A DNA stretch of 64,000 nt from Eukaryota sp. TZLM1-RC. Its lineage: Eukaryota > Protista > Metamonada: BaSk clade. The DNA is taken from NCBI GenBank assembly GCA_040285825.1, contig JAUPSS010000003.1, positions 3,162,001 through 3,226,000 of the forward strand. The letters run 5' to 3'. The notes below the pieces were generated by a model. That model saw only the letters and a program-made list of their open reading frames with translations, was not told the DNA's origin and made no database searches. The position numbers were made by a program, and so were the translations under genes. Shown piece after piece: positions 2,329-51,985 of the stretch (positions are counted from its first letter, which is position 1; the number at the start of each line of letters is the position of its first letter).

Positions 2329-3774
2329 ATTTATTCAGTTTATCGTCAGAAAATGCCCTTGCAGAGTTCAGGTTAGCTCCTCCGCGTTAATCGATGCCTC
2401 ACCTATCAGTGCTCAACTCCCTCCCGTGAATGTTATCCCCGCTGCATTTTCTCCGTCTTTTATACCTATGTAGCTTTATAGATTAAGTAAATTGATAGAA
2501 ACACCTCAGAGGGAGATTTGTAAATGTTGCAAGCTCAATAGTTCACGTTGATTGTTAATATAATAGGAAATACACATTTTTATTATTGGAATGTATTTTA
2601 TTTTTGCTATCAAGTAACATGGTATTCGTCCAAGTGCTATTGGCGAAGCAATTATTCGTTTCTTTGTTTCAGTTGTTTTTCATCGTGTTGTTTCTAAGGC
2701 TGTAAAGTTTTTATCGTTTTTTGAATTAAAACCATTGATGATGCTTCAGTTACAACCTAACAACTGCAATAAAAAATAAATCAATAAAATTAAAATAAAG
2801 TGAAAATTGTATTAATCAGATTTATATTTTTAATTTTGATTTAAAAAATGCTCTTAACTCTGTACACCAATATGCAGTGTAAGATGTAATCCAAAAAAGA
2901 ATTTCCTGAATTGTTTAGTATTTTATTTGAAACAAAAAATTATATCAGAAGAAATATTGGTTTTATGCTAAATCCGAACAAATGTCTCCTTTGGGTGAGA
3001 TGAATCAATTAAATTTTGATTGAAAAGTTGTTCAATAACATTAATTTACCTAAATGTCTTCTCATTACAAATATGAACAATTGTTTAATCATTGATGGTT
3101 CCGAATTTCGTTTTGTAGACTATGGCTCAAATGTTTTCTGTTGTCTAGACTGCTACCTTGAGAATTTTCCCAAAATCACAGCAGTTCCCAATGTTTTAGG
3201 ATATTTTTAAGACTCCCTGGCACTCGAGCCTGCCTGCCGACGATGAGTTCCACTCATGGGTCGCTGCAGGTGATGTTGAAGCACACATCATCATCTATGT
3301 CACATAACCCTAGCCAAAGACCAAATTGATTTTGGGAACAATCTGGTCTTGATATTATATTATATTATAAATGATATTTTGTTGTGGACATTACATTCAA
3401 TCATGAACACTGTTATGAAAAACACCGTGTTTTATTTTTAAAGGCTAAAACACAGGTTTATTTCAAAGAACCCAATGCTGTCTTTAACACTGGTGAGACT
3501 ACTGTGAATTTCACTTATCATGCATTCCCCTGTGAAATTCACTCCTGTTTTCAACTTTCTCAATGTCTACTCACAGGCTGTAAGAGACATGTAGCATCAT
3601 TTGACAAAGACAATCATGATCTTCATCAATGGGCTACCTCACTTAAATACACCTACTGCTTTCACAGAACAAAGCCTCGCGACTTGATGTATCTAAGTGG
3701 ATCTACCAAATGCTACTAGGGCATTTGTAGATCGGTCTCAAAAGTTTTAGTTTCTGTATGCTCACGTTCCCTAT

Positions 3775-11915: not shown

Positions 11916-12433
11916 TGAAAATCGTATTTGCTAGCTGGATGTTAGTATATGAATTGAGTAAATGTGGTTAGGATAAAGATAATATTATCTAAACTTAAAT
12001 ATTATATAAAGGTACCCTCTAGAAAGATACCTACAATAGTAACTGATTTTTCCCAATGTTACCTTAATAACCTTATTTATTCTTTACCCCATTACTTTTA
12101 AAGTCTCAGCCATGTCGATCGTTTACGGACAGTTTTGTCTTTGGGGTAATGCATCAGATTGGCCGAATGGGTCGATCCATGAAAACCAGCAATATAAGTT
12201 GTTTTATCACCTCAAAGGTGATATGGTGAGTAATTTCCAACATTCCAAAAACTTGCACAAATCATCACTGTCTTGTTCAATCTATTGACTTTCTGCTTCC
12301 ATATATAATGAAAAAGTTGTTCTCCATCAAGTCCTTGATCAAAGTAAAGACTGAAGAGTTGCTAACCGGAGCTGTAAACAATAAGAGGACATCTTCATGA
12401 ACAGACAAGGATTTCTTTATTCACTTAACCAGC

Positions 12434-13090
12434 ATGTCTACTACACCAACCGAATGCGAAATAGATGTCGACCGCCTCTTCCAGAACAGAGAATTTGTTG
12501 AAAGACTGAAACAGTTGATTAGATCTGAAGCTGTTAGTGAAACAGCAATTGATAAGCTCATTGAAACAATGCGACAATGGCGCAAAGAAGACCATGAACA
12601 ACGACAAAGGGAACGTCAAGAAGACCATGAACAACGACAAAGGGAAAGAAACCAGGACAAGGCTCATATGGATATTCAGCTGGGAACACTTGGGGCTCGC
12701 TGGGGTCTGAAAAACGAAAGAACCTGGAGAAATGCACTGAAAACTTTACTAAGCATATCAGCTCCAGATTACACAATTCAGCGGTTTGAAGACCAGGACC
12801 CACAAAGGCTTGACAAAGATGGCCGACCAGTGCCAGTGGAATTAGACATTGTTGCACTCAATGGTGTGTCATTTATTGTGGAAATCAAAGGTCATGTAAA
12901 GAGTGAAGATGTAGATATACTAGCAAGGAAGGTCGAGTTCGTTAAAGAAAAGAAAGGATTATCCACAGTGCACGTTTATCTTATTGCTCCGATTGTGGAC
13001 GAGAAGGCAAAGAAAAATGCTCACGAATATGGCTACGAATGTGTGGATGACCCAGAACAATTTGTGGACGAGTTGTCTGAATTTGTATAG
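12434..13090 (+). CDS. Coiled-coil + PD-(D/E)XK nuclease domain protein (DUF3782/DUF1626-like, prokaryote-type)
   Basis: LGARWGLKNERTWRNAL, VELDIV, IVEIKG, LIAPIVD. A 33-nt direct repeat (12585-12646) encodes EDHEQRQRER twice. Intronless. Confidence 0.7.
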   Translation: MSTTPTECEIDVDRLFQNREFVERLKQLIRSEAVSETAIDKLIETMRQWRKEDHEQRQRERQEDHEQRQRERNQDKAHMDIQLGTLGARWGLKNERTWRNALKTLLSISAPDYTIQRFEDQDPQRLDKDGRPVPVELDIVALNGVSFIVEIKGHVKSEDVDILARKVEFVKEKKGLSTVHVYLIAPIVDEKAKKNAHEYGYECVDDPEQFVDELSEFV

Positions 13091-13136: not shown

Positions 13137-15112
13137 TTTATTGAATATGCACACTGAATTAAACTATTTCATAACTAATGGGACAAAATTCATTGAAACA
13201 CGATTTCCTCTAAAAAATCTTGATCTGCTTGCTGTCTAGCTAAAGCTTCTCTAATTCGATTGAAAAACCAAGGCAATCTATTAATAATGGCAAATTGAAC
13301 ACAAGAGCGCCATAAAAAGATATCAAATCTTTTCATTGTCTTTTTTTGAACCATTTTTTGGAAGTCATTCAAAAAAGTTTCTGCTTCATCTGATAATTTT
13401 TCATTTATCGAAAATGGGAAAGCAATAAAAACTAGCTGTGTATTTCTATCAGCATTAGCCTCCTCAATATCTTTATCATATTTTCTATGTTTATCTTTTG
13501 CTTTAATATCAGGAGCACTCACAGGATTAAGTTTTCTTCTGTGAACCAAAGTATTATTTGCAACATTACATGAGACAAAGTCAACAACAGCTCCAGAATT
13601 ATCAATCCAATCACAGTATACATCACCTCTATCATCAGAACCAAAATTATTCAGAGAGAGTGTTTCCTTCAGCAGAGGCTCTTTGATACACGATATTCTT
13701 GCAGTTTGTGCCATATTGAAAACAATGTCTCTAACAGCATTATGTAATGAAGAACGATAGGTTATCAATTTAGAACAATTCAGCGCATAGCGCAAAGTGA
13801 GTTGAGGTGAATTCATACAAATACATTTTTCTTTTGATAGATTAATGGGGATATTCAAATATAATCTCATTTTTGTTACAAATGCTTCATTAGTGGCACA
13901 CAATCCAAATCTTCGTGGTACAATGGTTACAAAAAGTGAAGAATCTGATGACTTAATTTCACAAACACCCTTTTCCAATAACAATGAGTGAAGATCTTGA
14001 TTTAAAACAGCCGAGCTGCATATATTATTATAAAGATCATTTTCATACATTCCAGTCAATCGTTTCTGTAATGTTCGAAGAGTGTATTTTAAATTTAAAG
14101 GATTCTTTTCTGGAATATTGCCATTGAATGTTTGGGGAAAACATCGATCCATTTTTCTACATCAATTTTTGAAATTTCTTCATTTAATGCAAAAGCAGTG
14201 GAACTTTGCGTTATCATCAATAAATCTTCCCAAGCTGCAAACCCTTCGGAAAACTCAAAGATTGCATTTCTGCATCCAGCAATAAAAGCACACGAAGTAA
14301 GAATAGAAGCCTTCGTCCAACCTGAACCGTCATAATGTGGACTAACATAAGCATGGTCTGGAATTTGGAACATTTTACATCCCAGTAATTGTGACAAAAC
14401 TTTTGCACGTAACTCATTAAACTTCTGAGCCAAAGACCTAGTGACAAGAGAATTTGAAGATCGAAATATATGATTGAAGTTGGAACTAAAACACAGCCTT
14501 ATAATGGTAAATTTCATATGTTTCTATCTAAAGTCATCATTCGGTCAATTTTATAGGAAATTGAGTTCAACTTTTCAAACAATTTTTGGTAATTTCATCA
14601 TTATTTCCTAAAAACGAACCCAGATGACGAATAGCATCAATTGAATATAATTTGGCTTGAATTTCAATACCATCAACTATTGTAGAAACTGCAGAATTCG
14701 ATAACAAAACACATTTTAGTGAATTAAGTCGGAGACCAATTTTGGTAAATAATTCTTTAAAACATACAGTTGCTTTTTCCACAATATTTAAATCACCTAT
14801 AAGAACAACATCATCCATATATGCAATCATTTTCAGCGAAGGAAACATCTCTTGAATTTGTAATAAAATAGGATCAATGTCCAAACAAAACAAAAGAGGT
14901 CCTAACGGATCTCCTTGCTTTACACCACTTGATGAACTCAAAATGGAATTACCAAAATGTAAATTAGAATTTGTGCTATATGTTGATTGGAAATACGGCA
15001 TTAATTCCGGCTTATATTGCAACAAAGCACCATGAATACTGCAACGACTGAGTGAATTGAATGCATTACTGAAATCTAATGACATACAAACATTGGATTC
15101 ATTTTGGCGAAA
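13137..15112 (-). mobile_element. CRE/SLACS-like non-LTR retrotransposon family 1, copy B (RT + REL, frameshifted, 5'-truncated)
   Basis: RT motifs LDFSNAFNSL, GVKQGDPLGPLLF, AYMDD, GLRLN..K, RHLG (14567..15085). Linker 14095..14517. REL ORF 13190..14152. Confidence 0.9.
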
Positions 15113-15159
15113 TAACTAAATAATAAATAATGAGAAAACAAAACCAACATTTTTTTAAT

Positions 15160-16358: not shown

Positions 16359-17170
16359 TAATTAATTGGTTTACACTTTTGTTTTACCCATGAATTTCAC
16401 TGCAAATATGAATACCATGTATCCCAAAATATTGGGTAGTTGTAATTGAAATTAGGTGATATTTGTGTGACCACTTTGGGAGAAACATATTTGGGAACAA
16501 TTTTATAAAGCATATCTAGACGAATGTACAGTCACAACTTGTTCATAAACAGCCAGTAGGGTCTATTTCTCATGATTTTCTAAAACAGTATCAGCTGTTC
16601 ACACTGAGTGATTATCATATTTAAATAAGAATGCATTTACCATCTGAAGGGTACTAACAGTATTAGTACCTTTGATAAGAAAAAACAACCAGATAAGACA
16701 CTTAGCTCTCTATATTATCACTTCTACAGACTCTTCTTAACTTTTTCTGGGACTTGTTTATATATTTCAAACAAAAAATTAACTTCAGGGGGTCACTCTT
16801 TGTGTATTATGACACTAGTAAGTTAGTGCTCTAAAACTAAAAATCAAAGCAATATGGTACTATTGTGATCAACTCAACTAAGCAGAAGATGTGGTTGTTT
16901 ATGTTTCATGAATATTGATGACAAACCTTGTTGAAACAACGCAAACATAAAAAAAGTTTTGACTTGTTTTGACACACTGAAATCCATGATCTTAGTGATG
17001 AGGGATGTTTAGTACAAGAAGTTGGAAGATCATTAGTCATGATGCCTGACTTTATTTTGGAATTTCACACAACATCAAGGTGTTGATACGAATCAACAAA
17101 AGACAATTCTTTTTGAGAGATGAAAAATAAACGTCTACGATATGACTAACATTTCCCTGCAACTAGCATC

Positions 17171-20017
17171 ATGATCACATCTACGTCACCACCTCAACTC
17201 AACCAATATGCACGAATTGCTGAACTTCAACTATCACCAACTGAAATGATTCCCACTACACCTCTGCGAAGAACGACAACGAACTCTTCACTAGAGGCAC
17301 TTATGTCATCAGCACGAAAAATAATGGCTGATGTTGCTGCGAGACCAAAGGTGATGGAATCGCAGTCTTGTTCTCCCTCGCCAAACGAACCTGCACTATT
17401 ACCATCTGTTTCACCGGTACAATCGCCTAACCTTACCTCACCATCAGCTACCATTAACATTACACCAACGTCAAGAGTTTTAGTACATTCACCCAGTGGT
17501 CCAGAGTTTACCCTCTATTCAACCATCGTTCCAAGCGATGCGTCTACCAGGAATGAAATAGCTCAAGTCTCTCTAGCAAGCACTATACCCCCAAAACCAA
17601 TCAAACCCCCAAAACCATCGGCGATTGTGTCGGGTAACTATGACGGAGTTGAGTATGTTGGACATGGAAACAATTTCCAAGACAAAAATTTACAATTGAA
17701 ATCATTGGAGTTTTCAAGATTTTCTGAATTAGATTTAATGCAACACCATGACTCTGCAGCTCCAATTTCAGAAATCCAAAAGGAAGTTCAGTGTAATCAA
17801 ACATTGTTTGAGTCTGCTAATGTCAATTACGCTGATACAGTATCTCCAATGGCCAATCAATTCGACGCAATCAATTCTGACACCATTGTTGATTTGAATC
17901 ATTGCTCATCTTTAGCTCAAAGTGAGTTTCAACCAAATAAACCAGCTGAATGCATTCAATCTAATCAAAGCAAAGAGATTGGTCAACTTTGCATTGGTGA
18001 ATCATGCCATAATTCACTCTCAAATAGTCAAAACTCAAATTTAGGTGCACCAATGGAGGGTGAAATGACTAACAAAGATTATTCATATCACATCACCAAT
18101 CAAGATGACGTGATGGATGATTGTGGAATTGTGGATAGTGATTTCGTCTCTGAAGCTGCGCTCAACAGTCGAAAAGCTAGTATTGATGTCACTGAAGCAA
18201 CTGATGAAACTGGTATTGAAGTAAACAACAACGAAGAAGAACTTCCTGAACACATTGAAGGCCACAGCGTGACCACTGCTGTTGAATTAGAAGAATTAGA
18301 AGAAGATAAAAGCACTATCCAGGACAACAATAGTCACAGCAATTGCCAGCAGATGGAAACTGAAATTCAACCATTTACACCAGTTCATTTCCCAGGAATC
18401 CAAGAGGAAACCAATTATAATCCAAAACTGATTGATTCTGGTGCTAGCATCGAAACTGGTTCAATTGTTGATTTCTGTTCCCGTCTGATTGATTTTGAAA
18501 CTCATTCATCTCAGGGTAAACAATTAAACCATTTAATTACTGATGAACCGTGTTTTGAATCTACAAAATTGAGAAACTCATCAGATGGTGTACCAATGGA
18601 GGACGAAAACAGGAAAACAGATCACGTTTATCACGTCACCAATCAAGATGACGTGATGGATGATTGTGGAATTGTGGATAGTGATTTCGTCTCTGAAGAT
18701 GTGTTCAACAGTCGAAAAGCTAGTATTGATGTCACTGAAGCAACTGATGAAACTGGTATTGAAGTAAACAACAACGAAGAAGAACTTCCTGAACACATTG
18801 AAGGCCACAGCGTGACCACTGCTGTTGAATTAGAAGAATTAGAAGAAGATAAAAGCACTATCCAGGACAACAATAGTCACAGCAATTGCCAGCAGATGGA
18901 AACTGAAATTCAACCATTTACACCAGTTCATTTCCCAGGAATCCAAGAGGAAACCAATTATAATCCAAAACTGATTGATTCTGGTACTAGCATCGAAACT
19001 GGTTCAATTGTTGATTTCTGTTCCCCTCTGATTGATTTTGAAACTCATTCATCTCAGGGTAAACAATTAAACCATTTAATTACTGATGAATCGTGTTTTG
19101 AATCTACAAAATTGAGAAACTCATCAGATGGTGTACCAATGGAGGACGAAAACAGGAAAACAGATCACGTTTATCACGTCACCAATCAAGATGACGTGAT
19201 GGATGATGATCAATATGTTTCCTGTCAGGCGGGGGGTGAAGAACCTGAAGACATTATGTATCCAAATGATGAACTCGCTGAAAATGCTGTTTTATATAAA
19301 ACTGACGTGTTAGTGAACACTGTTTCTTCTGATTCAAATTCAACCAAAACTACTGTGAATTGTGTTGAAAATGAATCAGTGAATGATGAATACTTGATCT
19401 ATGATGATACTGGTACACCAGTAGATAAACAATTAACAGTGTCAGAAGTTCCCAATCAGGCAATTTCTAAGGAAAATTATACAGGTAATTCCCAAGATCA
19501 AGAGTCAGGAACTATCCCCGAGGTCACATATGTATCAAGTGAACCATCACACCCCTCCCAAGAGGAAGTTCAAAGTGAAAATATTGATTCCACACTAGAA
19601 TTGGTGGATAAGGTAGTACCCAACTCTTTTGATGTGGTGAAACGTTTTCTAAATAGGGAAAAACTGTCCAGTGAGAACCACATGTCGAATTACATTTTGA
19701 ACAAAAATGAATATAATTTAATAACCAAAGTGTACTTCAACTCTAAAGAAATGAGTAAAAGAACATTTGAGCAGGAAATTGTTTTGTTATTCAAACAATG
19801 TTTTGGCGTTCCATCACCAGAAAAGTTGCCTTATAGATGGCCGGGAAGAGAAGTTCCCGTACAGAACTTGTTGCAGGGAAAGTGTTCAAGAGATGTGAAG
19901 GAGCTGGAAAGGGACTTAGTCTTTAGCTCAGATCAGAAGCCTTTTTTGAATCATCGGAAAAGAACTCAAGCAGGGTTGCATTCTGTACAAAATAAGCGTG
20001 TTAGGCTTATTTATTGA
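17171..20017 (+). CDS. Large acidic low-complexity protein (948 aa) with an internal 181-aa tandem duplication
   Basis: Long intact ORF, S/P/T-rich N-terminus, D/E-rich middle, basic C-terminal end; no known domain recognised. Confidence 0.75.
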   Translation: MITSTSPPQLNQYARIAELQLSPTEMIPTTPLRRTTTNSSLEALMSSARKIMADVAARPKVMESQSCSPSPNEPALLPSVSPVQSPNLTSPSATINITPTSRVLVHSPSGPEFTLYSTIVPSDASTRNEIAQVSLASTIPPKPIKPPKPSAIVSGNYDGVEYVGHGNNFQDKNLQLKSLEFSRFSELDLMQHHDSAAPISEIQKEVQCNQTLFESANVNYADTVSPMANQFDAINSDTIVDLNHCSSLAQSEFQPNKPAECIQSNQSKEIGQLCIGESCHNSLSNSQNSNLGAPMEGEMTNKDYSYHITNQDDVMDDCGIVDSDFVSEAALNSRKASIDVTEATDETGIEVNNNEEELPEHIEGHSVTTAVELEELEEDKSTIQDNNSHSNCQQMETEIQPFTPVHFPGIQEETNYNPKLIDSGASIETGSIVDFCSRLIDFETHSSQGKQLNHLITDEPCFESTKLRNSSDGVPMEDENRKTDHVYHVTNQDDVMDDCGIVDSDFVSEDVFNSRKASIDVTEATDETGIEVNNNEEELPEHIEGHSVTTAVELEELEEDKSTIQDNNSHSNCQQMETEIQPFTPVHFPGIQEETNYNPKLIDSGTSIETGSIVDFCSPLIDFETHSSQGKQLNHLITDESCFESTKLRNSSDGVPMEDENRKTDHVYHVTNQDDVMDDDQYVSCQAGGEEPEDIMYPNDELAENAVLYKTDVLVNTVSSDSNSTKTTVNCVENESVNDEYLIYDDTGTPVDKQLTVSEVPNQAISKENYTGNSQDQESGTIPEVTYVSSEPSHPSQEEVQSENIDSTLELVDKVVPNSFDVVKRFLNREKLSSENHMSNYILNKNEYNLITKVYFNSKEMSKRTFEQEIVLLFKQCFGVPSPEKLPYRWPGREVPVQNLLQGKCSRDVKELERDLVFSSDQKPFLNHRKRTQAGLHSVQNKRVRLIY
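18050..19207 (+). repeat. 543-bp near-perfect tandem duplication within a CDS
   Basis: ACCAATCAAGATGACGTGATGGATGA occurs at 18095, 18638 and 19181 (period 543). Confidence 0.95.
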
Positions 20018-20339
20018 CTTTTTTGATGTATTTACTAAATTTACATATATTTTAAGCATTTTTTGGTTGATATTGTTTGCTGTTGAAGAAATCTTGTGCG
20101 GCAATTCATCGACATACATAATATTATTAGAGGGTATTTTTGGTAACTGGTAATTAATGCTTTTTTAGTGATATTTTATATATTCAATATAAACAATCTC
20201 AATCAAACACTATGTTCAAGCAAAAGAAACCAGAAAGTTGCCAACGTATTATTTTCTCAATTAATCAACTATGATGGGATCAACAACGCAATTTTCAACA
20301 CTTTTCGTCACATTGGTTTTGGAAAAGTTTTCCATACAG

Positions 20340-21221
20340 GCTGTTTTAAATCAAGATCTTCACTCATTGTTGTTGGAAAAGGGTGTTTGTGAAAATCAGT
20401 CATCAGATTCTTCACTGTTTGTAACCATTGTACCACGAAGATTTGGATTGTGTGCCACTAATGAAGCATTTGTAACAAAAATGAGATTATATTTGAACAT
20501 CCCCATTAACCAATTATTATCAAAAGAAAAATGTATTTGTTCGAATTCACCACAACTCACTTTGCGCCATGCTCTGAATTGCTCTCAATTGATAACTTAT
20601 CGTTCTTCATTACATGATGCTGTTAGAGACACTGTTTTCAATATGGCACAAACTGCAAGAATATCGTGTATCAAAGAGCCCCTGCTGAAGGAAACACTTT
20701 CTCTGAATAATTTTGGTTCTGATGATAGAGGTGATGTATACTGTGATTGGATTGATAATTCTGAAGCTATTGTTGACTTTGTCTCATGTAATGTTGCAAA
20801 TGATACTTTGGTTCACAGAAGAAAACTTAATCCGGTGGCTGCTCTGGATTTCAAAGCAAAAGAGAAACATAGAAAATATGATAAAGATATTGAAGAGGCA
20901 AATGTCGATAGAAATACACAGCTGGTTTTTATTGCTTTCCCATTTTCGATAAATGGAAGATTATCAGTTGAAGCAGAAACTTTTTTGGATGACTTCCAAA
21001 AAATGGTGCAAGAAAAAACAATGAAAAAATTTGATATCTTTTTATGGCGCTCTCGTGTTCAATTTGCCATTGATTAATAGATTACCTCGGTTTTTCAATC
21101 GAATAAGAGAAGCTTTAGCTAGACAGCAAGCAGATCAAGATTTTGTAGAGGAAATCTTGGTTCAATGATAGTCGTCCCATTAGTTATGAGTTAATTTAAT
21201 TAAGTGTGTAAATTTAATAAA
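20340..21221 (+). mobile_element. CRE-like family 1, copy C (5'-truncated REL region)
   Basis: ORF 20271..21077 has an intact CCHC (CICSN..RHALNC), HDAVRD, DRGD..D, KEKHRKY, FSINGRL. A +1 G near 21072 truncates it. 3' UTR is shared with copies A and B. Confidence 0.88.
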
Positions 21222-21331
21222 TACATTATTTTTTAGACCTATTTTTTCCAAGTTACATTAATTTCACAAACGGTAATGATTATGGTAAATTATTCTTACA
21301 TACAGCTTGCTTCCAATTGAAATATCCGTTT

Positions 21332-21645
21332 CTATATCAAAATGAGTAGAGAGGCTATGTGGGCATGGGAAGAGAGGACGACAGAAGTTGTTTGAGATCC
21401 AGGTGTCCACGAGTAGACAGAATTGGATATAGAGAAGACTAAAACTCGCTTCACCCATATCATGTGACTGATCGGTCCAGGAAGAGGAGGACCAGTGTAG
21501 AGTATGTGTAATCGATCTGTGGAGTAAACAATGAAGGAATGTTCAACTGCCGCAGCAATCATAGATGAGTTGCCTTGGGTATGAAGTGCCAGTGGACCAG
21601 TGGCAACAGCCCCATGTGTTCGTAAAGGTGCATATAAAGGTTCGT
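21332..21645 (-). pseudogene. UTP21: N-terminal fragment of UTP21/WDR36
   Basis: LYAPLRTHGAVATGPLAL...IAAAVEHSFIVYSTDRLHILYTGPPLPGPISHM matches the first WD blades of Utp21 (LF.PfR.lG.vs...p...F..Yd...L). It ends after ~100 codons. Confidence 0.6.
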
Positions 21646-21975
21646 AGGTTAAACGTTTTGAAAAACTCCACAAATAATTTCGTTGGTCAAAATATGCATC
21701 CACAAAAGGAGAACAAGGATAACGAGGTTACGGACTCAGTTCCCACCTCCTTCTTCAACCTGTTGTTCAAAGAACAGCCGAGTACTTCTTCCCGAACTCC
21801 TCAGTCGGGAACAGTCATCCTGTTTTACAGGAATAAATGGAAGGTCAGAGCCTCGATTTCTTATCGAAATCGTCGTTCTGATTCTTCTGTGGGGGTAGAG
21901 TATTGCACTTTTCCGAGTCATTATGTGAGTCATGATATGGGTGCTGTTGAATCAGCAATGGTGCTAATCACCTTG

Positions 21976-22400
21976 GATATGGGATGCTCTTCTTCTTCGT
22001 GTTTTGTTTTGAATTGTTACTTTGATGTTATTGAGTTTGTTGTTTTTCATGGTTTAGCTATTTGTACTGTAGATATGGGATGTTGTTCTGGTTTGTGTTT
22101 TGTTTTACATTGTTGTTACTTTGATGTTTTTGATTTTGTTGATGTTTTTGGTTTAGGTACTTGTACTTTGAATATGGGATGTTTTTCTTGTTTGTGTTTT
22201 GTTTTGAAAGGTTGTCTTGATGTTTTTGGGTTTGTTGTTTTTCGTGGTTTACGTACTTGTACTGTGGATGTGGGATGTTTCTTTTGTATATGTTTTGTTT
22301 TACATTGTTGTTTTGATGCTTATGAGTTTGTTCATTTTTGTGGTTTAGATTCTTGCACTTAGATATGGGATGTTGTGTCTTAAATTGTTATTTTGATAAT
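21976..22400 (+). repeat. Coding minisatellite, ~96-nt unit (DMGC...CFVL.C.FD..FV.F.GL..CT), four full units plus one partial
   Basis: Units start at 21976, 22072, 22171, 22267 and 22362 (96, 99, 96, 95 nt). Confidence 0.9.
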
Positions 22401-22454
22401 GTTGAGTTTGATTATTATGTTTATAATTTATCTTTTCAATCCAGAAGCTGCCAA

Positions 22455-22526
22455 CATCTTCTATCAACAAACCCATTTACTGTTGATTTAACAATTGATG
22501 GAGATGTTGAAGCAAATCCTGGTCCC
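22455..22526 (+). other. 2A (StopGo) ribosomal-skipping peptide
   Basis: HLLSTNPFTVDLTIDGDVEANPG|P is an exact D(V/I)ExNPGP consensus with upstream DLT.DG. Skip site between 22523 and 22524. Confidence 0.85.
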
Positions 22527-22929
22527 AGAAAGAGAAGATCTAATTTTGAATCAACTCCTCCATCAAAAATTATTAGAAATGCGATTTTTGACCAACAAAC
22601 ATCAAAGCGTAAGCTGAAAAAACAACAAAATGCACTGAACCGAGAAATTTGTATGGAGAATACAATGTTGAATATTGAGAACAGGCAGATTTTGACAAAA
22701 AAACCATTGAAACCGAATAAGGTCAAAAAAAATTGAGCCAAGTCGTAGTGGTTTCAAGCCTGATCCATTGATTCAATTCAAATCAATGACCTCAAATCAA
22801 CATCTTCCCATTGTTATGTGCTTTGATCTTGAAACCTATCAGGATGGTCATCTTTATCAAAATCATGATGGCTAATTTCTCCCTCCTGACGAGATCATCA
22901 ACAAAAAGAGAAAAGAGGGTGCAAATCTT

Positions 22930-25827
22930 TTGAAAAAGAAAACTGATGAGCAAATGGGTGAGTGGATTTCAGATCAAAAAGTGTTTTTAATTTCGATTGT
23001 TATTGGTAAGTTTGATCGCCATAATTTCTTTTTGGAGAGTAAATATTCACTTTTATTGAGAATGAGTCCTCAAATCAGATTACCAGACATTGATATGGAT
23101 ATTCAGGCAGAAATATTCTCTGACGAAAAAATCTTGCTTCGTAGGTTTATAAACCTTATTGGTAATCATCAACCCCATTGTTTTCTTAATCACAATTTAA
23201 TGCAGTTTGATTTACAGGTTTTAAGAAATAGATTAAATTATTTTGATTTACCATTTCCCACTTTTCCAGATGATACAGCAATTGATGTACTCAATCAACT
23301 TTCACCAAGATGGAGAGAAGTTGTCATCAGGGAAAATGGCTTTTTTCTTTTAGATACTTGGGTTTTTGCCAAAAAATTCATAAAAATACCCTACGGACAT
23401 AGGTTAGGCAATCTGGCATATAAAATGATAAATGAAAAGAAAATCAAACTTCATCAGGAATTTTCCCATATTTTGCCAATTGATTGTTTAGCTACTTCTC
23501 CTCTGATACAAAATTCGATTCAATATGGGTTTCATGATTGTATCCTTTGTCTGAAACTTTTCGTGCTGTTTCAGAAAGACAAATTTATTTTATCATCTTA
23601 TAAAACCATTCGAGCAACCGTCAACTCAATGGTTAAACATTCGAATGTGATACTCAAATTGAGAGAAACTGCTTTAAAATTTCAACAGTTACGTATTCAC
23701 ACCACTTGTTGCTTAAAGCTGTATTTACAGTCTTGTTTTGAACGTAATTTGTCATTACCACGAATATCTGCCCACTTATATGAATCATTAATGGCCAGAA
23801 TTCGTTATATTTCAGCTGAGTATTATGGGCAAGAAATGGTGAAACCAAAGAGTGCATTTCCACAGGATTTTGAAAACTTTGTTTATGGTGAAGGAGATTG
23901 TAGATTATCGACCACCTTTGAACAACAAAAGTTGAACAAAACATTGAGTTATGTAGACCATTTGAGATATAGGCCTGAGTTTTTTCCACGATTTCCAACT
24001 GATGGATTCAGTAGACCACCTGGGTATATGGCCCCAGTAATGTTTGCCAATTTTGAGAATAACTTGAAATTGAATTATGAAAAACATATTAATCGATTTA
24101 TTAATGTTTTTTTTGACAAACCAGATGTGGAAAATGTGTTAGCAGAAATGTATAAGCTGGGTGGATACTCAACGCCATTATCTACTATAATTTCACTATA
24201 TAGATTTAGGCTTCGTCAATTCAAAAACTTGTTTCTAGTTGATGATAGAGATTGCTTGAGTTCTTTGTTTCATCATCCTGAAAATATTTCAGACCTTCTG
24301 AATGATGAATTTTTCGATTTATGTGAACATCATGATATAAGAGGTAATGAACTTAGAGACATATTTGAAGGTCTTATTGAGCCTTGTACTTGCCAAATTG
24401 AGAATTTGGTCACTGACGAGAATTTAGTTGATAACATATTTCCAGTGGATATACATTTTCTTGCAGACACTATGGAAACAGATCCTCAAATATTCCTAAA
24501 ACCAGCAATTACAATTGCCCAATATATCTCCAGTGGAGAGAAAAAACCATATCATATTTCTCCTGTTTCAACCACTGTCGGCCCTGGATATTTTCCCATT
24601 GATACAAGAACAATATGGACAATTATTAGACAAACATTGATGGACGATTTATCATCTACACAGACGCTGAAAATGTCCAATACACTAGCCCAAGTTACGA
24701 AATTCAAACCACCTCAGCAATTTGACTTTTGGTCTAATATTCTCGATTTAAATCAACCAATGTTCAAACAGAAGAGCTATAAATTCAACAACATTATCCA
24801 CACAGATGGATTTAATATTGCAGTAGAATTTGTTCGTCGGGATTTACAAGGTCAGAAATGTAAGCCAGACAACAAGGCCAGTATTTCGAATTTATATATT
24901 GATGATGTTGATGTTGATACTGTTCAAGGCAAACGAATTGTTGTTTGTGATCCTGGAAAACGTGATTTATTGTATTTTGGGAGCAGAAAGACTGATCAAG
25001 AATTAGCCATGGTACCTGAACATGAAACTGAACAGCAAAGAAATAGTCGGGTGATGAATCAAGACAAGAAGTACAAATGGTTGAGAATGACTCAGATGTC
25101 CTGGTCTTTGAAAAGTAGGATGAATGAAAAGCAAAAACGATGGGCGATAAAGTATACTGAGGTAGATTGCGACAGGAACCAAATGATCGAGTCTAACGAA
25201 ATGACAATTGAAGATGCAAACACCGAATTATCCGCGTTTGCTGCCAATTCAGCAACTGTTATAAATTTTTCCAACTTTGTGATTGCCAGACTTCGGCAAG
25301 TTTTTTTGACAATTGACTTTTATAGTCTTGACTTGTGGAGCATTCATAAAATGCAAGCTTTTATTCACAAGCAAAGGACTGAAAGTTGGTTGTTAAAAAA
25401 CCTTGTTCAGCAATTTGGCAATCCAAAAGACACTTTAATACTAATGGGTGATTATGGTAAAAAAGGTTCCAAGAATTTGAAACATCAGAGACCTACTAGA
25501 GGAATTGGATGGATTCAATTTCTGAAAAGAAATGGATTTGAAGTATTGATGATTAATGAAGCTTTCACTTCAGCAAAATGTCCTGTGTGTTTTGAAAAGG
25601 TTGCTACGTTTTTGAGAGTCGCAAATCCCAGATTCTATAGAAGAGAAAAGACTCCAGTTACTACATGTCATGGTTTATTAGCTTGTAACAGTGAGAGTTG
25701 CAAACTCAGTAACAAAGGCTCAACAAAGCTTTTCAATAGAAATAAGCTGGCTTGTCTGAATATGTTTGCAATTGCTGAAGCCAGAATGAGTGGTAATGAA
25801 AGACCTCAGTATCTGTGTAGTAGATAG
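22930..25827 (+). CDS. PolB-type 3'-5' exonuclease fused to Fanzor1 RuvC nuclease (965-aa open portion)
   Basis: ExoII HNLMQFDL and ExoIII YGFHD (ExoI FDLET lies in frame just upstream). Fanzor1 motifs YKTIRAT, NFENNLK.NYEKH, SPV.T...YFPIDT, IHTDG, RuvC-I VVCDPG, GDY, RuvC-II INEAFTSAKCPVC, CHGLLAC..C, RuvC-III FNRNKLACLN, RPQYL. Confidence 0.88.
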   Translation: MKKKTDEQMGEWISDQKVFLISIVIGKFDRHNFFLESKYSLLLRMSPQIRLPDIDMDIQAEIFSDEKILLRRFINLIGNHQPHCFLNHNLMQFDLQVLRNRLNYFDLPFPTFPDDTAIDVLNQLSPRWREVVIRENGFFLLDTWVFAKKFIKIPYGHRLGNLAYKMINEKKIKLHQEFSHILPIDCLATSPLIQNSIQYGFHDCILCLKLFVLFQKDKFILSSYKTIRATVNSMVKHSNVILKLRETALKFQQLRIHTTCCLKLYLQSCFERNLSLPRISAHLYESLMARIRYISAEYYGQEMVKPKSAFPQDFENFVYGEGDCRLSTTFEQQKLNKTLSYVDHLRYRPEFFPRFPTDGFSRPPGYMAPVMFANFENNLKLNYEKHINRFINVFFDKPDVENVLAEMYKLGGYSTPLSTIISLYRFRLRQFKNLFLVDDRDCLSSLFHHPENISDLLNDEFFDLCEHHDIRGNELRDIFEGLIEPCTCQIENLVTDENLVDNIFPVDIHFLADTMETDPQIFLKPAITIAQYISSGEKKPYHISPVSTTVGPGYFPIDTRTIWTIIRQTLMDDLSSTQTLKMSNTLAQVTKFKPPQQFDFWSNILDLNQPMFKQKSYKFNNIIHTDGFNIAVEFVRRDLQGQKCKPDNKASISNLYIDDVDVDTVQGKRIVVCDPGKRDLLYFGSRKTDQELAMVPEHETEQQRNSRVMNQDKKYKWLRMTQMSWSLKSRMNEKQKRWAIKYTEVDCDRNQMIESNEMTIEDANTELSAFAANSATVINFSNFVIARLRQVFLTIDFYSLDLWSIHKMQAFIHKQRTESWLLKNLVQQFGNPKDTLILMGDYGKKGSKNLKHQRPTRGIGWIQFLKRNGFEVLMINEAFTSAKCPVCFEKVATFLRVANPRFYRREKTPVTTCHGLLACNSESCKLSNKGSTKLFNRNKLACLNMFAIAEARMSGNERPQYLCSR

Positions 25828-25828
25828 T

Positions 25829-25955
25829 TGTAATTATTCCACACGAAAATTGATCGTGTATTTATGGGAATTTCCCACCAACGGTATCACTTTCAGGTAT
25901 CACCAAGCAACTTTGTCCTGGAAGAAAACCAGACAGAAATAAACAGGTGATTACA
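25829..25955 (+). ncRNA. Candidate Fanzor omegaRNA scaffold
   Basis: Nested hairpins directly after the stop: ACACGA/TCGTGT, TGGGA/TCCCA, ATCACC/GGTGAT enclosing TGTC(C)TGG/CCAGACA, and TGTAAT/ATTACA. Confidence 0.5.
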
Positions 25956-25968
25956 TTAAGCAAAGCTA

Positions 25969-26352
25969 ATGGAGTTGGATTTGTCTGACAACCGTCCATC
26001 TCCTTTCACAGGATGGTACGGGTATTTTCTTCCAGATGTTGACACTGCCACTGTGGGCGAGTTTCAGGCTTATGGAGGAGCAATATTGAACCAATTGCCT
26101 CAACCTGACATCAATCCCAACGTTTTGGTGTTTGGTGTTCAGTATCCAGATGACTTCCCTCCACATCTGCTCCTTGTCTTGCCTACTTTTGTTAGCCACT
26201 GTGTCCGTGTGGGAGAGGTGACCGAACTTGATCGTTTTCTTGTTCCACCTTTCAAGTATACTGATGTTGACATGAATAATTTATCAGATCTATTGTTGTT
26301 GGTACCACCAATGCCTGATGATGTTCAAATAGGAGAACCTCAACCAATTTAG
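25969..26352 (+). CDS. Small BRCT-like protein (127 aa)
   Basis: PFTGWYGYF...AYGGAIL...VLPTFVSHCVRVGEVTELDRFL resembles the BRCT pattern (F.G..f, GG.v, v.p.Wi.dc....l....y); the conserved Trp is Phe here. Confidence 0.45.
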   Translation: MELDLSDNRPSPFTGWYGYFLPDVDTATVGEFQAYGGAILNQLPQPDINPNVLVFGVQYPDDFPPHLLLVLPTFVSHCVRVGEVTELDRFLVPPFKYTDVDMNNLSDLLLLVPPMPDDVQIGEPQPI

Positions 26353-26947
26353 CATTGTTCTGTCTCATTTTTGCTTGTAAATATTTTGTAAAGTTCTTTT
26401 AAGTTTAGTTAGTTTTTTATCAAACTATAAAATACTTTTACAACCTGTTATTGACAAATAAGTTGCATTAGGCGATGAAAGATCAGATTCTTGTATTTGC
26501 TCGTATTCCCCTTCAACAGAAAGTTTTCGTTGCATTGAACAAAGAAGTTGAAAAAAACTGATCATTATATAATAGCTGATGTATATAAAGACTAACAATT
26601 TCAAGTCGCAATTTGTACTTTAAATAAATAGTATTACTGAATAAGCACAAGAGGATTGGAACCAATAAGAGATTGGAACTTTGAGTACTTATAACACAGG
26701 ATATCAAGCTTGATAAGGCCATATTAAGTCACAACAATAGAATGGAGATACAAGTTCTTAAATATTGTATTGATTCTTGAAGAATCCAATAAATGTTGTC
26801 AATAAAAACGACGATTTAAATAGGAAGAAGTACTAGAGAGAACTCACAATACAATCAAATCAACCAATCAGATTTGATTCAACATCAATTGAACTGTAGA
26901 CAAATTATTCCTCGCTGTAGATCTATTTCTTAGTCCATCTCTTTGTC

Positions 26948-27976
26948 ATGAAACCTGTCATCCTTGTTCTGCTAGCTGTAGTAGCTGTTGTCAGCGCATA
27001 CGACCCCTTTTCTCCAAATCCTGACTTATTTGGTTTCGAGCATCCCTCCATAGGGAAAGCAGAAAATATCGAAATGTTTGATGACGAAGAGCAAATTCAA
27101 TCTGACCAATTAAGTGTATTCGATGCTCAATGGTTCAATAGTCTGAAAACCTCAAGCAGCTGGCCCTTTCCTTCAGTAGATCCCCAAATGTTGGACGGCT
27201 TTTTGGAAGAAGAAGAAGACGACGAAGAAGGAACAGAAGCTCTTGAAGATAATGAAGGATGTGACGATGATAGCGAGGAATGTGATAATAATTCATGCCA
27301 ACCAATATATGAAGGACAAAGTGATGGTGTCTGTGATGAAGATGGTTATGATGATGAGGACTTTGACGATGAAGAACCCCTTCCAATGCTGGATGTGCAG
27401 ACTTTTTATCAATCCATTTACTCACAGTTTATCCACCTTCACAATAGCCAACCTACACAGAGGAAACCATCCAAGCCAACCTCTCCTCCTCCAAGTAACC
27501 CCACATCACCCCCAGTTCCTGCTTTTGATGAATGTTCCAGTAAGGATGATCCTCCGGTACTTGTAATACAGGCAAGTTCACTCCCTGAAGGAAAACTGCA
27601 CGAAAAGTCCCTTCTCCATGCCGGTATATGCTATGTAAAGTCAAAAACATCTGCTTCAGCTCCATGCGTTCTGAATGGCAAACTCACCACATGTGATTCT
27701 GATGGTAATGTAGATCAGGAATCTGCTCTTGATTTTGAACTATGTCCTGCTGTGCAAGCAATCAGTATGGATCTCACTGAAGGTTCTGATGCTATTGCAG
27801 GCGCTTGGGATATTGACGACAAACCAATAGGAGCAGTTGAATCTGCTAACGTAGAAGGGATATTTGGTATCTCTGCTAAACCATGTTCCCAGGTGAAAAG
27901 GTTTGCAGTAGCTGCAGAGGGACTGCTGATTGAGAAGATTCGAGTGTGGAAGTATTGTGATTTCTATTGTAGGTGA
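26948..27976 (+). CDS. Secreted acidic protein with Pro-rich linker and Cys-containing C-terminal domain
   Basis: Signal peptide MKPVILVLLAVVAVVSA, D/E tract, PTSPPP repeats; 342 aa. Confidence 0.8.
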   Translation: MKPVILVLLAVVAVVSAYDPFSPNPDLFGFEHPSIGKAENIEMFDDEEQIQSDQLSVFDAQWFNSLKTSSSWPFPSVDPQMLDGFLEEEEDDEEGTEALEDNEGCDDDSEECDNNSCQPIYEGQSDGVCDEDGYDDEDFDDEEPLPMLDVQTFYQSIYSQFIHLHNSQPTQRKPSKPTSPPPSNPTSPPVPAFDECSSKDDPPVLVIQASSLPEGKLHEKSLLHAGICYVKSKTSASAPCVLNGKLTTCDSDGNVDQESALDFELCPAVQAISMDLTEGSDAIAGAWDIDDKPIGAVESANVEGIFGISAKPCSQVKRFAVAAEGLLIEKIRVWKYCDFYCR

Positions 27977-46599: not shown

Positions 46600-47830
46600 T
46601 GTTATCCTCCTTATTCGCTAAATACAAGTTTATTAATTCAATTAGTATAAATTTTTTTATTTACAGATTTTAAAACAGTGGTACCAAAAAATGTTCAGTT
46701 CAATGAGACTTACACAAACATTATAATTGGTCTCTCACAGCATCGTGGACTTTGCTTCTAAAAGTAATACAGGGTTTACAATTTAACAAATGGATGATTG
46801 TAAATTTTTCGAGAACATTTACAAATTGGATTATGAGGTAAATTATCAGGCCAGAAAAAGGAACGAATTCTCATGTTCAAAGTGCAAGTATAATCAGTTA
46901 AGAGAGTACCATAAACTTGAGGAATTGTTGTTACTAAGGCAGAAGATGTACTATCACACATATCTTGTAAAAGACTTGCAAAAGCGGGATTCTTTTTCTT
47001 GGCCAAGCCAAGTCTAACGTCAAAATCCAACTTTTTCAACAATCTTTGACAATTTTTGTTGAAGCTTTTTACAGCAAAACTGCAAATTAAAAAGAGGTCG
47101 GTTCGGAATGTCTTGAATTGATGGTGAAAGCACTTGATCCAGATTTATGGTGGCAATTTTTCGAGTCCACAAGATAACTCATTCAAATATGGACTGCAAC
47201 TGGGAACAAATGGGAATCTTCAGGAAATCTACGAAAACATCATAAGTACAATTCTTGCCTCCACCCAATAATAACTGATTGGCACAAAATAGAGGATTTT
47301 GTATCGAACACGTCCAAAGTTTGCTGCGCAAAATGACTCTTCAAGATTCCTGAATCTTCATCCAGTAAATCAATTAATTACTATTATCAATGAATCAAAA
47401 CATCGAAATAAATTTAATGCTATAGAAGGAGCCAGATCTCAGATTGTTGTTCTCCCCATGCAACCTAAAGGATCTTTTTGTTTCACACCAAAAGATGATT
47501 TTAATGCAAATGGAGTAAATATTAAGTCTGAGTCATTACCATAAAAGTGATAGAAGAAACTGGAAAGCTCAGGAAAATTAAATTTCATTACAACAAAAAT
47601 TGCTTTTAGCTTCACAGAATTGAAAGCATTTTGAAGTCAAAATTAAAAGTAAAATTATTATTTGCTGGTTGGAAAAAGGTGTCAGAGGCAAGAGAAGCAA
47701 CAGAAGCACCATCAATTGTTGTTATTCCAAATTGATGAGGATTTACAAATTTAGAAGTTTCAATTTTCAAAACAGTTAATTGTTGAAAATAGTTGGCAAG
47801 ATCATCAGCAATTTCAGGATCACTGAAACA
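46600..47830 (-). mobile_element. Degenerate CRE-like element (RT start + Zn knuckle), internally deleted
   Basis: HQFGITTIDGA...FNFDFK/NAFNSV and LNMRIRS...ICKCS...HLLNC...FRSKVHDAVRD, spread across frames. Confidence 0.65.
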
Positions 47831-48499
47831 CTCTATTTTCAACCGATCGAAAGAAATTGAAGATGGGCCCGTAGCTTTTCCTTTTGGTAATTTTGAAATG
47901 GTCGTGGAAACTTTTTTTTTGGCAAAAATGGATTTTTAATCCAAAAAAGATAACCAACAGGCTTGCGACACTTAAGGCTTTCTTGAAGATGCAAATTCCA
48001 AAGTTTCTATAGTGTTTCAGAAAATGCATCAGCCACAGAGAATGAAAGCAAAGACTGTTTTGCCGCTTCATAACGACCACGTAAGCACAACTTTCGGATA
48101 ACTTATATTTTTTCAATATTTTCATTCCCAAATGTTTTTTCTTGCAAAATATTTCCAAAAAGGTCAAATATTTTTACTTATTGTACGTTAATTCAGAAGT
48201 GAACGTTTTTATTTCCATTGAAAAAGGAATTGTACTGGTGGGACTAATTTTTACTGGAATCTGAATTGGTGGCCGAACAGTGTCAACAGCTTCATTTTCA
48301 ACAGGGTAAGAAGAGTCAGCACTATGAGCATTTGAACCAAAGATCAGTGGAACCACCATTTTCAGCAAAATTCAAATCGTCATTGACTGGAACGGAACAC
48401 TTTAGAATCAAAATGTGTTTGTCCCAAAGATTTATTTCGTCTTTATTGAATAGGATTCTTAAAGGGTGACTTCTATTTGACGTACCATACTGTTAGCCG

Positions 48500-50049: not shown

Positions 50050-51985
50050 TGTTTATGAGTGACAGAGGAAACTGATTTTAGTGAAATTTTCGGATGAAGT
50101 GCAGTGTAAGTTTATTAGCAATAATCTTAAAATTGACATTTCACAGTGAAGTTTATTCATGAACTTACAGTGGTTGCAGTATTCATGGTGCTTTGTTACA
50201 ATATTTGCCAGAATTAATGCCTTATTTCCAACAACATATTGCACAAATTCTAATTTACATTTTGGTGATTCTGTTTTGAAATCATCAAGTGGTGGTAAGC
50301 ACGGAGATCCCTTAGGACCTCTTTTGTTTTGTTTGGCCATTCATCCCATTTTATTTCAAATTCAAGAGATGTTGCCTTCACTCAAAATGAATGCTTATGA
50401 GAATGACGTTGTTCGTATAGAGGACTTAAAGATTGTCACAGAAGCAACTGAATATTTTGAAGAATTTGTTAACAAAATTGGAATCCGACTTAATTCACTG
50501 AAATGTGTTCTACTTTTGAATGTTACTTTTTTTGGTTCCTCTCTTCTTTCTAGTTCTCTCTCTTTATTTTCATCAACAAAACTTTTTACCTCAGGAATGA
50601 CGAAAAGACCCAGAACCATAATTATTTTTAACAAGTGGTCAAGGACTTTAATAAAATTAGTATAGAGGGGAGACTGTCGATCCAAGTCATATGGAATTCT
50701 CAATGTGTGATTAATAGTTATGAAAAAGCCAAATGAAATTAACAATTTCACAATTCCAACTAAGATTTTTATGGTAAATTCCTTCATTTTATTTATTGTA
50801 ATAATATTAATTTATTTATTCTTAATGAGACTTGATTATTACGCTACGTTGATAATGGCTACTTTTGACATGATTGGTTCTGATGATAGAGGTGATGTAT
50901 ACTGTGATTGGATTGATAATTCTGAAGCTATTGTTGACTTTGTTTCATGTAGTGTTGCAAATGATACTTTGGTTCACAGAAGAAAACTTAAATTTAAATT
51001 TAATTTTATTCTAAACCTATAAATCAACATCTAAAAAATCCATCTCTCCCAAAACAAAAACACTAGATGCAACTCTCTCATAGTGAGATCCAAGAGAAAG
51101 CAAAGCATCAGAAACCATCTTCAACATCCCCTTAAAAACAGAAAACACAATTCTATTTTGCCAATTTTGTAATGCCTCAAATGAAAGGCTTGCTAATTCT
51201 GAAATTCATAATCCCCTTTCAAATGCTGAAAATTTTAAATTCAAAAAATACAATGAACCTTTGTCCAAATTGGCCAGTCTACAGCATGCAAAATACAATT
51301 TGTATCCATTTGTATTTTCCCTTTTTGGTTCACTTGCACCAACTGCTTTACGTTTTTTGGATGATTTTGATTAATAGATTGCCTCGGTTTTTCAATCGAA
51401 TTTGAGAAGCTTTAGCTAGACAGCAAGCAGATCAAGATTTTGTAGAGGAAATCTTGGTTCAATGATAGTCATCCCATTAGTTATGAGTTAATTCAATTAA
51501 GTGTGCAAATTCAATAAATACGAGTTATACTTTCGTATTCTCCAGTTTCTTCAACAGTTTATGGTTTTAAAATTCAAGCCAATTTGTATTCAATTGATGC
51601 TATTCATCATTAAGGTTCGTTTTTAGGAAATAATGATGAAGTTACCAAAGAATTGTTTGAAAAGTTGAACTCAATTTCTGACCACTTGTTTTTATTGCTT
51701 TCCCATTTTCTATAAACAAAAGACTATCAGTTGAAGCAGGAACTTGTTTGAGTGATTTCCAAAAAATGGTTTAAGAAAAATCAATGAAAAGATTTGATAT
51801 TTTTTTATGGCGCTCTTGGATTCAATTTGCCATTATTAATAGATTACCTCGGTTTTTCAATCGAATAAGAGAAGCTTTAGCTAGACAGCAAGCAGATCAA
51901 GATTTTGTAGAGGAAATCTTGGTTCAATGAATTTCGTCCCATTAGTTATGAGTTAATTTTGTTAAGTGTGCAAGATCAATAAAGA
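50050..51985 (+). mobile_element. Mosaic of CRE-like fragments: family 1 RT piece, REL piece, inverted family 3 insert, two family 1 3' ends
   Basis: GGKHGDPLGPLLF/AYEND (50159..50520), DDRGDVYCDW (50874-50990), family 3 at 51016-51370, family 1 3' ends at 51369-51520 and 51690-51985. Confidence 0.8.

Follow-up and report, generated by a model that had tools for sequence, protein, structure and literature searches.

What Fanzor nucleases do for the elements that encode them is an open question. Restorative homing has been shown for TnpB and IscB and is proposed for the OMEGA group (PMC13565253). Among the Fanzor1 enzymes, SpuFz1 cuts the non-target strand after base 16–17 and the target strand after base 20–21 (PMC10432273), and GtFz1 is active with an asparagine at the third position of the RuvC site, where the corresponding change in SpuFz1 (D606N) makes the enzyme more active (PMC11423790). 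We analyzed a 64,000-nucleotide stretch of Eukaryota sp. TZLM1-RC (contig JAUPSS010000003.1, positions 3,162,001–3,226,000 of the forward strand; hereafter the window), which contains a single copy of a repeated element encoding a Fanzor1. The locus is a disabled copy of this element, whose single open reading frame (ORF) comprises, in order, a leader, a 2A-like peptide, a basic linker, a family-B 3'–5' exonuclease and Fanzor1 (table 1). The element encodes a Fanzor1 in which a polymerase-type exonuclease is joined directly to the Fanzor nuclease.

A preliminary description of the locus, made from the sequence, had placed the exonuclease in frame with Fanzor1 and named five of its catalytic codons. 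All five are found at these places (D22825, E22831, D23209, Y23524 and D23536), as are the in-frame TAA, N23194 and Y23599. Downstream of the TAA, no stop codon interrupts the frame between 22876 and its terminal TAG, a length of 983 amino acids (aa); the 965 aa of the initial ORF list correspond to a start at the 19th codon of this frame, which is a Leu codon and not an ATG. The frame does not begin near 22801, as had been thought: the original frame extends about 1.1 kb further upstream, to around 21700, through the 2A-like motif. The exonuclease of this copy is complete only when the TAA is read through. The junction between exonuclease and Fanzor is crossed by a contig of X1 (record 5; 23279–23849, 5 differences) and by a contig of X2 (record 13; 23274–23648, 60 differences). 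As these DNA contigs span the junction, the join is not a gene-model artefact.

Table 1. Coordinates of the features of the element and of its right flank in the window.
Feature	Position	Strand	Details
Leader reading frame, hydrophobic, Cys-rich	21703..22460	+	four to five 96–99 bp repeats at 21970–22408
One-base slip breaking the leader frame	22358	+	X1 and X2 contigs have one T more; mutation or assembly error
2A/StopGo-like peptide ending in DVEANPG/P	22461..22526	+	D22503, G22521, P22524; predicted skip site
Basic linker starting with PRKRR	22524..22803	+	putative, similar to a nuclear localization signal (NLS); holds the 8-A run
Family-B-type DEDDy 3'–5' exonuclease	22804..23577	+	ExoI D22825/E22831, ExoII N23194/D23209, ExoIII Y23524/D23536
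In-frame TAA	22873..22875	+	nonsense lesion of this copy
Fanzor1 nuclease	23587..25827	+	RuvC D24949, E25558, N25741; C4 zinc finger; stop TAG 25825–25827
Non-coding tail common to other copies	25828..25878	+	small hairpins 25841–25859 and 25865–25877; candidate omega-RNA scaffold
Copy-specific flank, candidate guide	25879..25893	+	by analogy with SpuFz1

Several lines of evidence identify the N-terminal domain. The Pfam profile DNA_pol_B_exo1 matches it above the cut-off (31.4 bits, E 1.6e-7 with ExoI; 29 bits, E 8.9e-7 without); the RNase_H_2 profile, also named in the preliminary description, gave no match at E ≤ 0.05. A profile built from seven exonuclease domains of the family retrieved from the PDB first yeast and human Pol delta (E 9e-12 to 7e-11), followed by Escherichia coli Pol II, herpes, T4/RB69, Pol alpha and archaeal family B polymerases (PolBs). 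In the atlas, the closest two clusters both belong to eukaryotic PF03104 (0.94), and NCBIfam and PHROGs, which cover prokaryotic and phage families, returned generic PolB matches. Taking the TAA as a Gln codon, we modeled the structure from an alignment of 116 rows, which gave a predicted local distance difference test (pLDDT) score of 78.6; the single-sequence fold (pLDDT 32) was useless, and the alignment-based fold was used instead. In this model, residues 4–264 superpose on family-B exonuclease domains, which have a DnaQ-type fold, with Z-scores of 11–12; the model is weaker in its exonuclease half. A helical insert of about 30 residues after ExoI is specific to this family. As had been noted, the polymerase palm is absent: no DNA_pol_B palm model (PF00136) matched the window protein or 20 relatives. 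Since, in addition, residues 268–1013 are fully accounted for by Fanzor, the protein is not a whole family B polymerase. Intact relatives, with their conserved catalytic residues, are predicted to possess 3'–5' exonuclease activity.

Pfam, the PDB profile search, the atlas and the structural superposition thus agree with the earlier proposal that the module was captured from a family B polymerase. Among the three donors envisaged at that time, viral, Polinton or host, a Polinton is weakly disfavored, as no protein-primed polymerase occurs among the best 60 of 111 PDB sequences or the best 50 BFVD rows. Fold Z-scores are tied for Pol alpha, delta, zeta and Pol II; by profile, the exonuclease is closest to Pol delta. 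Giant-virus PolBs are Pol delta-like and thinly represented in the PDB, and a host Pol delta and a giant-virus PolB are therefore not separated as donors.

The C-terminal part of the protein matches PpFz1 (E 1.2e-25) and SpuFz1 (E 3.8e-21). Residues 268–1013 of the model superpose on both (from residue 18 in SpuFz1) with Z-scores of 24–26, compared with 12.5 for the best Cas12 superposition; the template modeling score to the target is 0.77–0.79 for SpuFz1, with the REC and RuvC extensions included. According to the structural superposition, the linker between exonuclease and Fanzor is about 5 residues long. The Fanzor motif of Bao and Jurka (2013), D-X(125,275)-[TS]-[TS]-X-X-[C4 zinc finger]-X(5,50)-RD, is recognizable as D722, T928, S929, C932-x2-C935, C968 and C973, except that its final residue is N (RN) and not D, a variant also found in GtFz1, which is an accepted Fanzor1. 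The rearranged RuvC-II glutamate lies directly before the zinc finger (E925-AFTSAK-C932). The third RuvC residue is N in 32 of the 33 family proteins that show the motif and D in most other representatives. Given the activity of GtFz1 with N and the gain in activity of SpuFz1 on the D606N change, this residue does not imply a dead nuclease. By analogy, intact relatives are predicted to cut double-stranded DNA in an RNA-guided manner that depends on a target-adjacent motif (TAM). Two long viral Fanzor-like structures were retrieved from BFVD, A0A3G4ZYF5 of Gaeavirus (876 aa) and A0A2H4UTM1 of Bodo saltans virus (826 aa, labeled Hsp70); these may carry other fused domains.

We searched for relatives among 1.84 billion representatives, to which cluster look-ups added models. 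The closest proteins, with 75–100% identity, are gene models labeled Eukaryota sp. TZLM1-RC, and remoter ones come from TZLM3-RCL and GEM-RC1; the family was seen only in these three metamonad assemblies. GEM-RC and TZLM3-RCL are free-living metamonads of soda lakes (PMC11316075); the word "Fanzor" does not occur in this genome paper. P0012 (1,281 aa) matches residues 9–981 in a single stretch with 36% identity, and more exonuclease-bearing relatives share 29–34% identity. The cluster look-ups provided the full or near-full models P0162, P0179, P0167, P0163 and P0170. P0012, P0162 and P0179 are full-length models with both active sites. The preliminary description had left room for homologs starting downstream of ExoI; instead, five diverged subfamilies include this motif. 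These five subfamilies with a whole exonuclease domain show pairwise identities of 27–36% in the exonuclease and 25–36% in Fanzor, and 28 of 258 exonuclease positions are invariant among them, including D14, E16, D142, Y247 and D251.

The exonuclease and Fanzor parts have diverged to a similar depth, and their domain trees of seven rows, which are mostly unresolved, share the one resolved group. A quick tree calculated for the C-terminal part of Fanzor has a branch that separates 14 rows of the family from 49 other Fanzors, with a Shimodaira–Hasegawa-like approximate likelihood ratio (SH-aLRT) of 98; alignment A2, on which it is based, contained 50 of the other representatives and fragments of unclear exonuclease content, and P0032 was dropped as too gappy. 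A single Fanzor clade and similar divergence of the two parts are consistent with a single old fusion. The exonuclease profile matched 8 of the best 150 of 1,231 Fanzor representatives, all 8 belonging to this family. Among longer proteins, it matched 9 of 7,989 scored candidates, corresponding to seven family members and two whole PolBs. Pattern searches, which detect close relatives, found none in viral or metagenome contigs. The atlas, which comprises clusters of at least 50 members, contains no cluster with both domains (best score 0.75). Judging from sequence comparison, the exonuclease–Fanzor fusion is old and conserved.

The family is multi-copy and largely decayed: one 90% cluster has 42 members, and the 15 listed are mostly fragments. 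This fragmentation is one reason to ask whether the exonuclease is a chance passenger or an annotation artefact without function in the element. Another is that the gene models P0161, P0005, P0006 and P0019 fuse element pieces to unrelated host or retroelement domains, namely a DEAH helicase, two reverse transcriptases and a DM10 domain; these joins are probably insertions or modeling joins. The continuity of the raw DNA, the contigs across the junction and the invariance of the catalytic residues at about 30% identity make such an origin extremely unlikely for the exonuclease.

Upstream of the exonuclease, the sequence DVEANPGP at 22503–22526 fits the 2A/StopGo motif D(V/I)ExNPG/P. It is the sole match to this motif in the six frames of the window, with 4e-5 expected from residue frequencies. 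The leader is continuous with the 2A motif in P0009, P0186 and P0192, and P0009 runs unbroken from the hydrophobic repeat leader through DVEANPGP and the basic linker to ExoI. P0179/P0182 and P0170 carry the identical motif ahead of unrelated linkers, and P0167/P0032/P0166 have H in place of its E; models of the P0012 and P0163 subfamilies did not show the motif. The leaders themselves are wholly different between subfamilies, and no Pfam family matched that of the window (21703–22460). From its sequence, ribosome skipping is predicted at this site and would yield a protein of about 1,100 aa with PRKRR at its N-terminus. In addition, an Ulp1-like protease segment follows the 2A site in P0170 (residues 237–318, E 0.0018), and a DCG-type motif precedes it at the N-terminus of P0182. 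Some subfamilies may therefore carry an additional polyprotein module. The word "Fanzor" is absent from the main text of two surveys of 2A peptides (PMC12338488; 10.64898/2026.06.17.732966).

The copy in the window carries three lesions. The preliminary description had seen ExoI hidden behind one TAA. This stop codon is confirmed, but the copy is a pseudogene with two frameshifts besides it. Six close relatives cover the TAA codon: five have Gln (P0003, P0007, P0009, P0011 and P0029), which identifies the TAA as a nonsense lesion, and P0041 has His. One C-to-T change suffices to account for it. The first frameshift is the slip in the leader (table 1); the second results from the 8-A run at 22725–22732, where P0009 is continuous. 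The two slips could be assembly errors; given the TAA, the copy is disabled regardless. Some diplomonads read TAA as Gln, and the copy would be alive if its TAA were decoded in this way, read through or spliced out. The relatives with Gln at this codon do come from metamonads (PMC11316075). However, 15 long neighboring frames, three of them of 1,172–1,555 codons, hold 337 CAA or CAG codons and end in TAA, TAG or TGA; these frames were chosen as stop-free, and it is their length that argues against a Gln-for-stop code. The Fanzor frame also stops at a TAG where its relatives stop, two frameshifts lie upstream, and the single C-to-T change explains the codon, so that a living copy is very improbable. 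An intron around the TAA is superfluous, as the relatives read through with Gln.

We examined the ends of the element. On the right, two contigs match the window up to 25874 and 25878 and then diverge into different flanks, and multi-copy coverage ends near 25878, which marks the right end of the element. By their position, the 51 nt that follow the stop codon are a candidate omega-RNA scaffold. The tail does not fold better than shuffled sequences (z −0.95 for the tail, −0.3 to −1.0 in four windows), and no Rfam match was found at E ≤ 1 over 21200–26400. The flank at 25879–25893 differs between the window and the two contigs, giving three distinct flanks; no second site within 2 mismatches of it exists in the window. 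On the left, similarity to relatives starts at about 21703. Because two relatives share a few residues further upstream, this copy seems to lack the true left end. Between the right end and 21000–22000, we found only 12-mer repeats at chance level. The sequence TTCCCACC, present at 21740 and 25872, was considered as a target site duplication (TSD) and ruled out, as relatives share sequence upstream of 21740. A weak match of P0174 to an IS1 transposase (E 0.023) was treated as noise.

This organization bears on two other roles for the exonuclease. It might serve the transposition of the element, for instance one-ended Helitron2-like copying by a transposase acting in trans, and merely share a chain with Fanzor. 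The terminal hairpin at the right end, the failure to find an inverted repeat and the variable leaders would fit such a role, and there are reports of Fanzor-only Helitron2 elements and of P and piggyBac elements with DEDDh nucleases (PMC3627910). Against it, the 2A-like site parts the leader from the exonuclease, and never the exonuclease from Fanzor, in the four subfamilies having it; the linker between the two is constant at about 5 residues, and there is no transposase in any family model scanned. We consider this role rather improbable. Alternatively, the exonuclease might set the length of the guide by trimming the 3' end of an omega-RNA whose guide is read from an unbounded flank. The DEDD superfamily indeed includes RNases. 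A guide extending past the element end must become 14–15 nt long (PMC13565253), which such trimming could explain. However, the profile and fold matches are all to DNA polymerase exonucleases and include no RNase, and RNA maturation in other Fanzors proceeds without a domain of this kind, as judged from the confinement of the exonuclease profile to this family among the best representatives. RNA trimming is thus also of low probability.

We propose that intact relatives produce a two-nuclease enzyme whose exonuclease removes the non-matching 3' tail left by a TAM-distal cut, so that homing repair can start; by analogy with related systems, we regard this proposal as evenly balanced. Skipping at NPG/P would free the enzyme with its NLS-like start, whatever leader precedes it. 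By analogy with other Fanzor1s, the 3' end of the element would supply an omega-RNA that uses the flank as guide and directs a cut 14–21 nt beyond the TAM. At an empty site, a 3' tail of about 16–17 nt, displaced and single-stranded, would remain on the TAM side of the cut. This tail would consist of right-flank sequence, which does not match the donor's left junction, and there would be no such tail on the far side. The tethered exonuclease would meet the tail while it is single-stranded in the R-loop and chew it back toward the junction. Trimming would block simple re-ligation and give a 3' end able to prime synthesis into the element, and repair would then copy the element back into the guide-matched empty site. 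Phage T4 intron homing needs 3'–5' exonucleases for a similar reason. The expectation of a non-matching 3' tail at an empty site follows from the positions at which SpuFz1 cuts the two strands. In yeast, the Pol delta exonuclease shortens invading 3' ends, by as much as about 40 nt, and during gene conversion it is able to remove a 3' tail that lacks homology (PMC9477423; PMC10868807). We tentatively regard the protein as a natural single-chain "cut and trim" RNA-guided enzyme, in which a Pol delta-like proofreading domain would have been captured to deal with the non-matching 3' tail left by the enzyme's own cut and 2A skipping would free it from the leader; this view falls somewhat short of an even chance.

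The same two active sites could instead act to cut and destroy, the exonuclease widening the Fanzor break into deletions and so removing or killing empty sites, rival elements or viral DNA. In general, a proofreading-type domain that lacks a palm acts distributively, which fits poorly with this idea. The predicted guide is also the element's own flank and differs in each copy, with no array or fixed guide seen. The conserved two-site architecture speaks for it, and TREX2–SpCas9 fusions have been used to raise editing efficiency (PMC13370227). We consider this function unlikely.

Several observations weigh against the homing proposal itself. The left end, TAM, TSD and transposase were not found at the locus, and the enzyme activity, the transcript and the omega-RNA are all predictions made from the DNA. 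Section 5.6 of PMC13565253 does not count Fanzor itself among the systems with demonstrated homing. The benefit is not obvious, since host Pol delta or Rad1–Rad10 could already do the job, and engineered exonuclease fusions lowered editing in human cells by MmeFz2 (TREX1, TREX2 and T5) and SpuFz1 (T5). Two gene models lack ExoI: P0170, otherwise a complete Fanzor, in which the Ulp1-like segment occupies the place expected for ExoI, and P0186, which skips it. The 2A motif is present in four of the six subfamilies whose models reach upstream of the exonuclease, in one of them with H for E. Finally, pLDDT is below 50 over much of residues 199–267, so that the model does not fix the placement of the exonuclease relative to the R-loop.

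Elsewhere in the window, a Pfam scan identified a nucleoporin, WASH-7, tubulin-tyrosine ligase, trehalose synthase and Rer1, and the window is that of an intron-poor eukaryote. Fragments of a very high-copy non-LTR (long terminal repeat) retroelement, located by tblastn with P0005 and with a contig depth of up to about 1,000 in run X1, lie at 20265–21223 (+), about 13190–15115 (−), 46800–48060 (−), 50200–50515 (+) and 2600–2980 (+). A 3' piece of this retroelement adjoins the Fanzor element on the left. Head to head with the element, a short frame at 21335–21727 (−), weakly similar to the Utp21 N-terminus (E 0.097; four of four PDB matches to Utp21), is truncated by a retroelement fragment, with no room for a whole gene. 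Further away are a 955-aa acidic low-complexity frame at 17150–20017 (+), which contains two nearly identical internal copies spaced about 543 nt apart and has no Pfam match above the cut-off, and a gene at 12401–13090 (+) encoding a DUF3782 and PD-(D/E)XK nuclease, a prokaryote-like family in a eukaryote. Downstream of the element, the frames at 25960–26352 (+) and 26921–27976 (+) have no Pfam matches; the latter shows a signal-peptide-like start and an acidic tract.

No natural Fanzor fusion of this kind was found in the titles and abstract beginnings of the Fanzor papers retrieved; supplementary tables or Repbase could list one. In the text sections available, "exonuclease" is absent from Jiang 2023, Yoon 2023, Saito 2023, Altae-Tran 2023 and a 2026 review, and "fus" from Bao and Jurka (2013). 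With a second conserved active site in the chain, point mutations could be used to probe the repair step: exonuclease-dead and RuvC-dead versions would separate cutting from end processing. The family also represents a second deep lineage with a D-E-N triad, places a 2A-like site in a Fanzor element and provides a natural counterpart of the fusion that engineers tried on Fanzors without success.

The exonuclease–Fanzor protein can be compared with four known systems. Like SpuFz1 (8GKH, 9CEU–9CEZ), PpFz1 (9CF0, 9CF1) and GtFz1 (9CER), it contains the whole Fanzor fold from the first strand (Z 22.8–25.9, 524–592 residues aligned). With known Fanzor1s it shares the rearranged RuvC-II glutamate before the zinc finger and a common non-coding 3' tail that leads to a sharp right end, with Spu-1 a multi-copy element without its own transposase, and with GtFz1 the D-E-N triad. 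It differs from them by its additional 260-residue N-terminal exonuclease, 2A-like site and leader, and by its length of about 1,100 aa compared with 600–750. Like the proofreading domains of family B polymerases (Pol delta, E. coli Pol II, herpes, RB69), the exonuclease shows ExoI DxE, ExoII NxxxFD, ExoIII YxxxD and the intervening motifs. Unlike these polymerases, it is without N-terminal, palm, fingers and thumb domains, has a helical insert after ExoI and is joined to an RNA-guided nuclease. As in 2A-bearing non-LTR retrotransposons (L1Tc, Ingi and APE-type long interspersed nuclear elements; PMC3708506), a class A-type GDVExNPGP lies near the ORF start, after a leader, but here the downstream product is an exonuclease–Fanzor and not a reverse transcriptase. 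Finally, as in the engineered TREX2–SpCas9 and the TREX or T5 fusions to MmeFz2 and SpuFz1, an end-trimming enzyme is tethered to an RNA-guided cutter; whereas the engineered Fanzor versions reduced editing, this fusion is natural and has long co-evolved.

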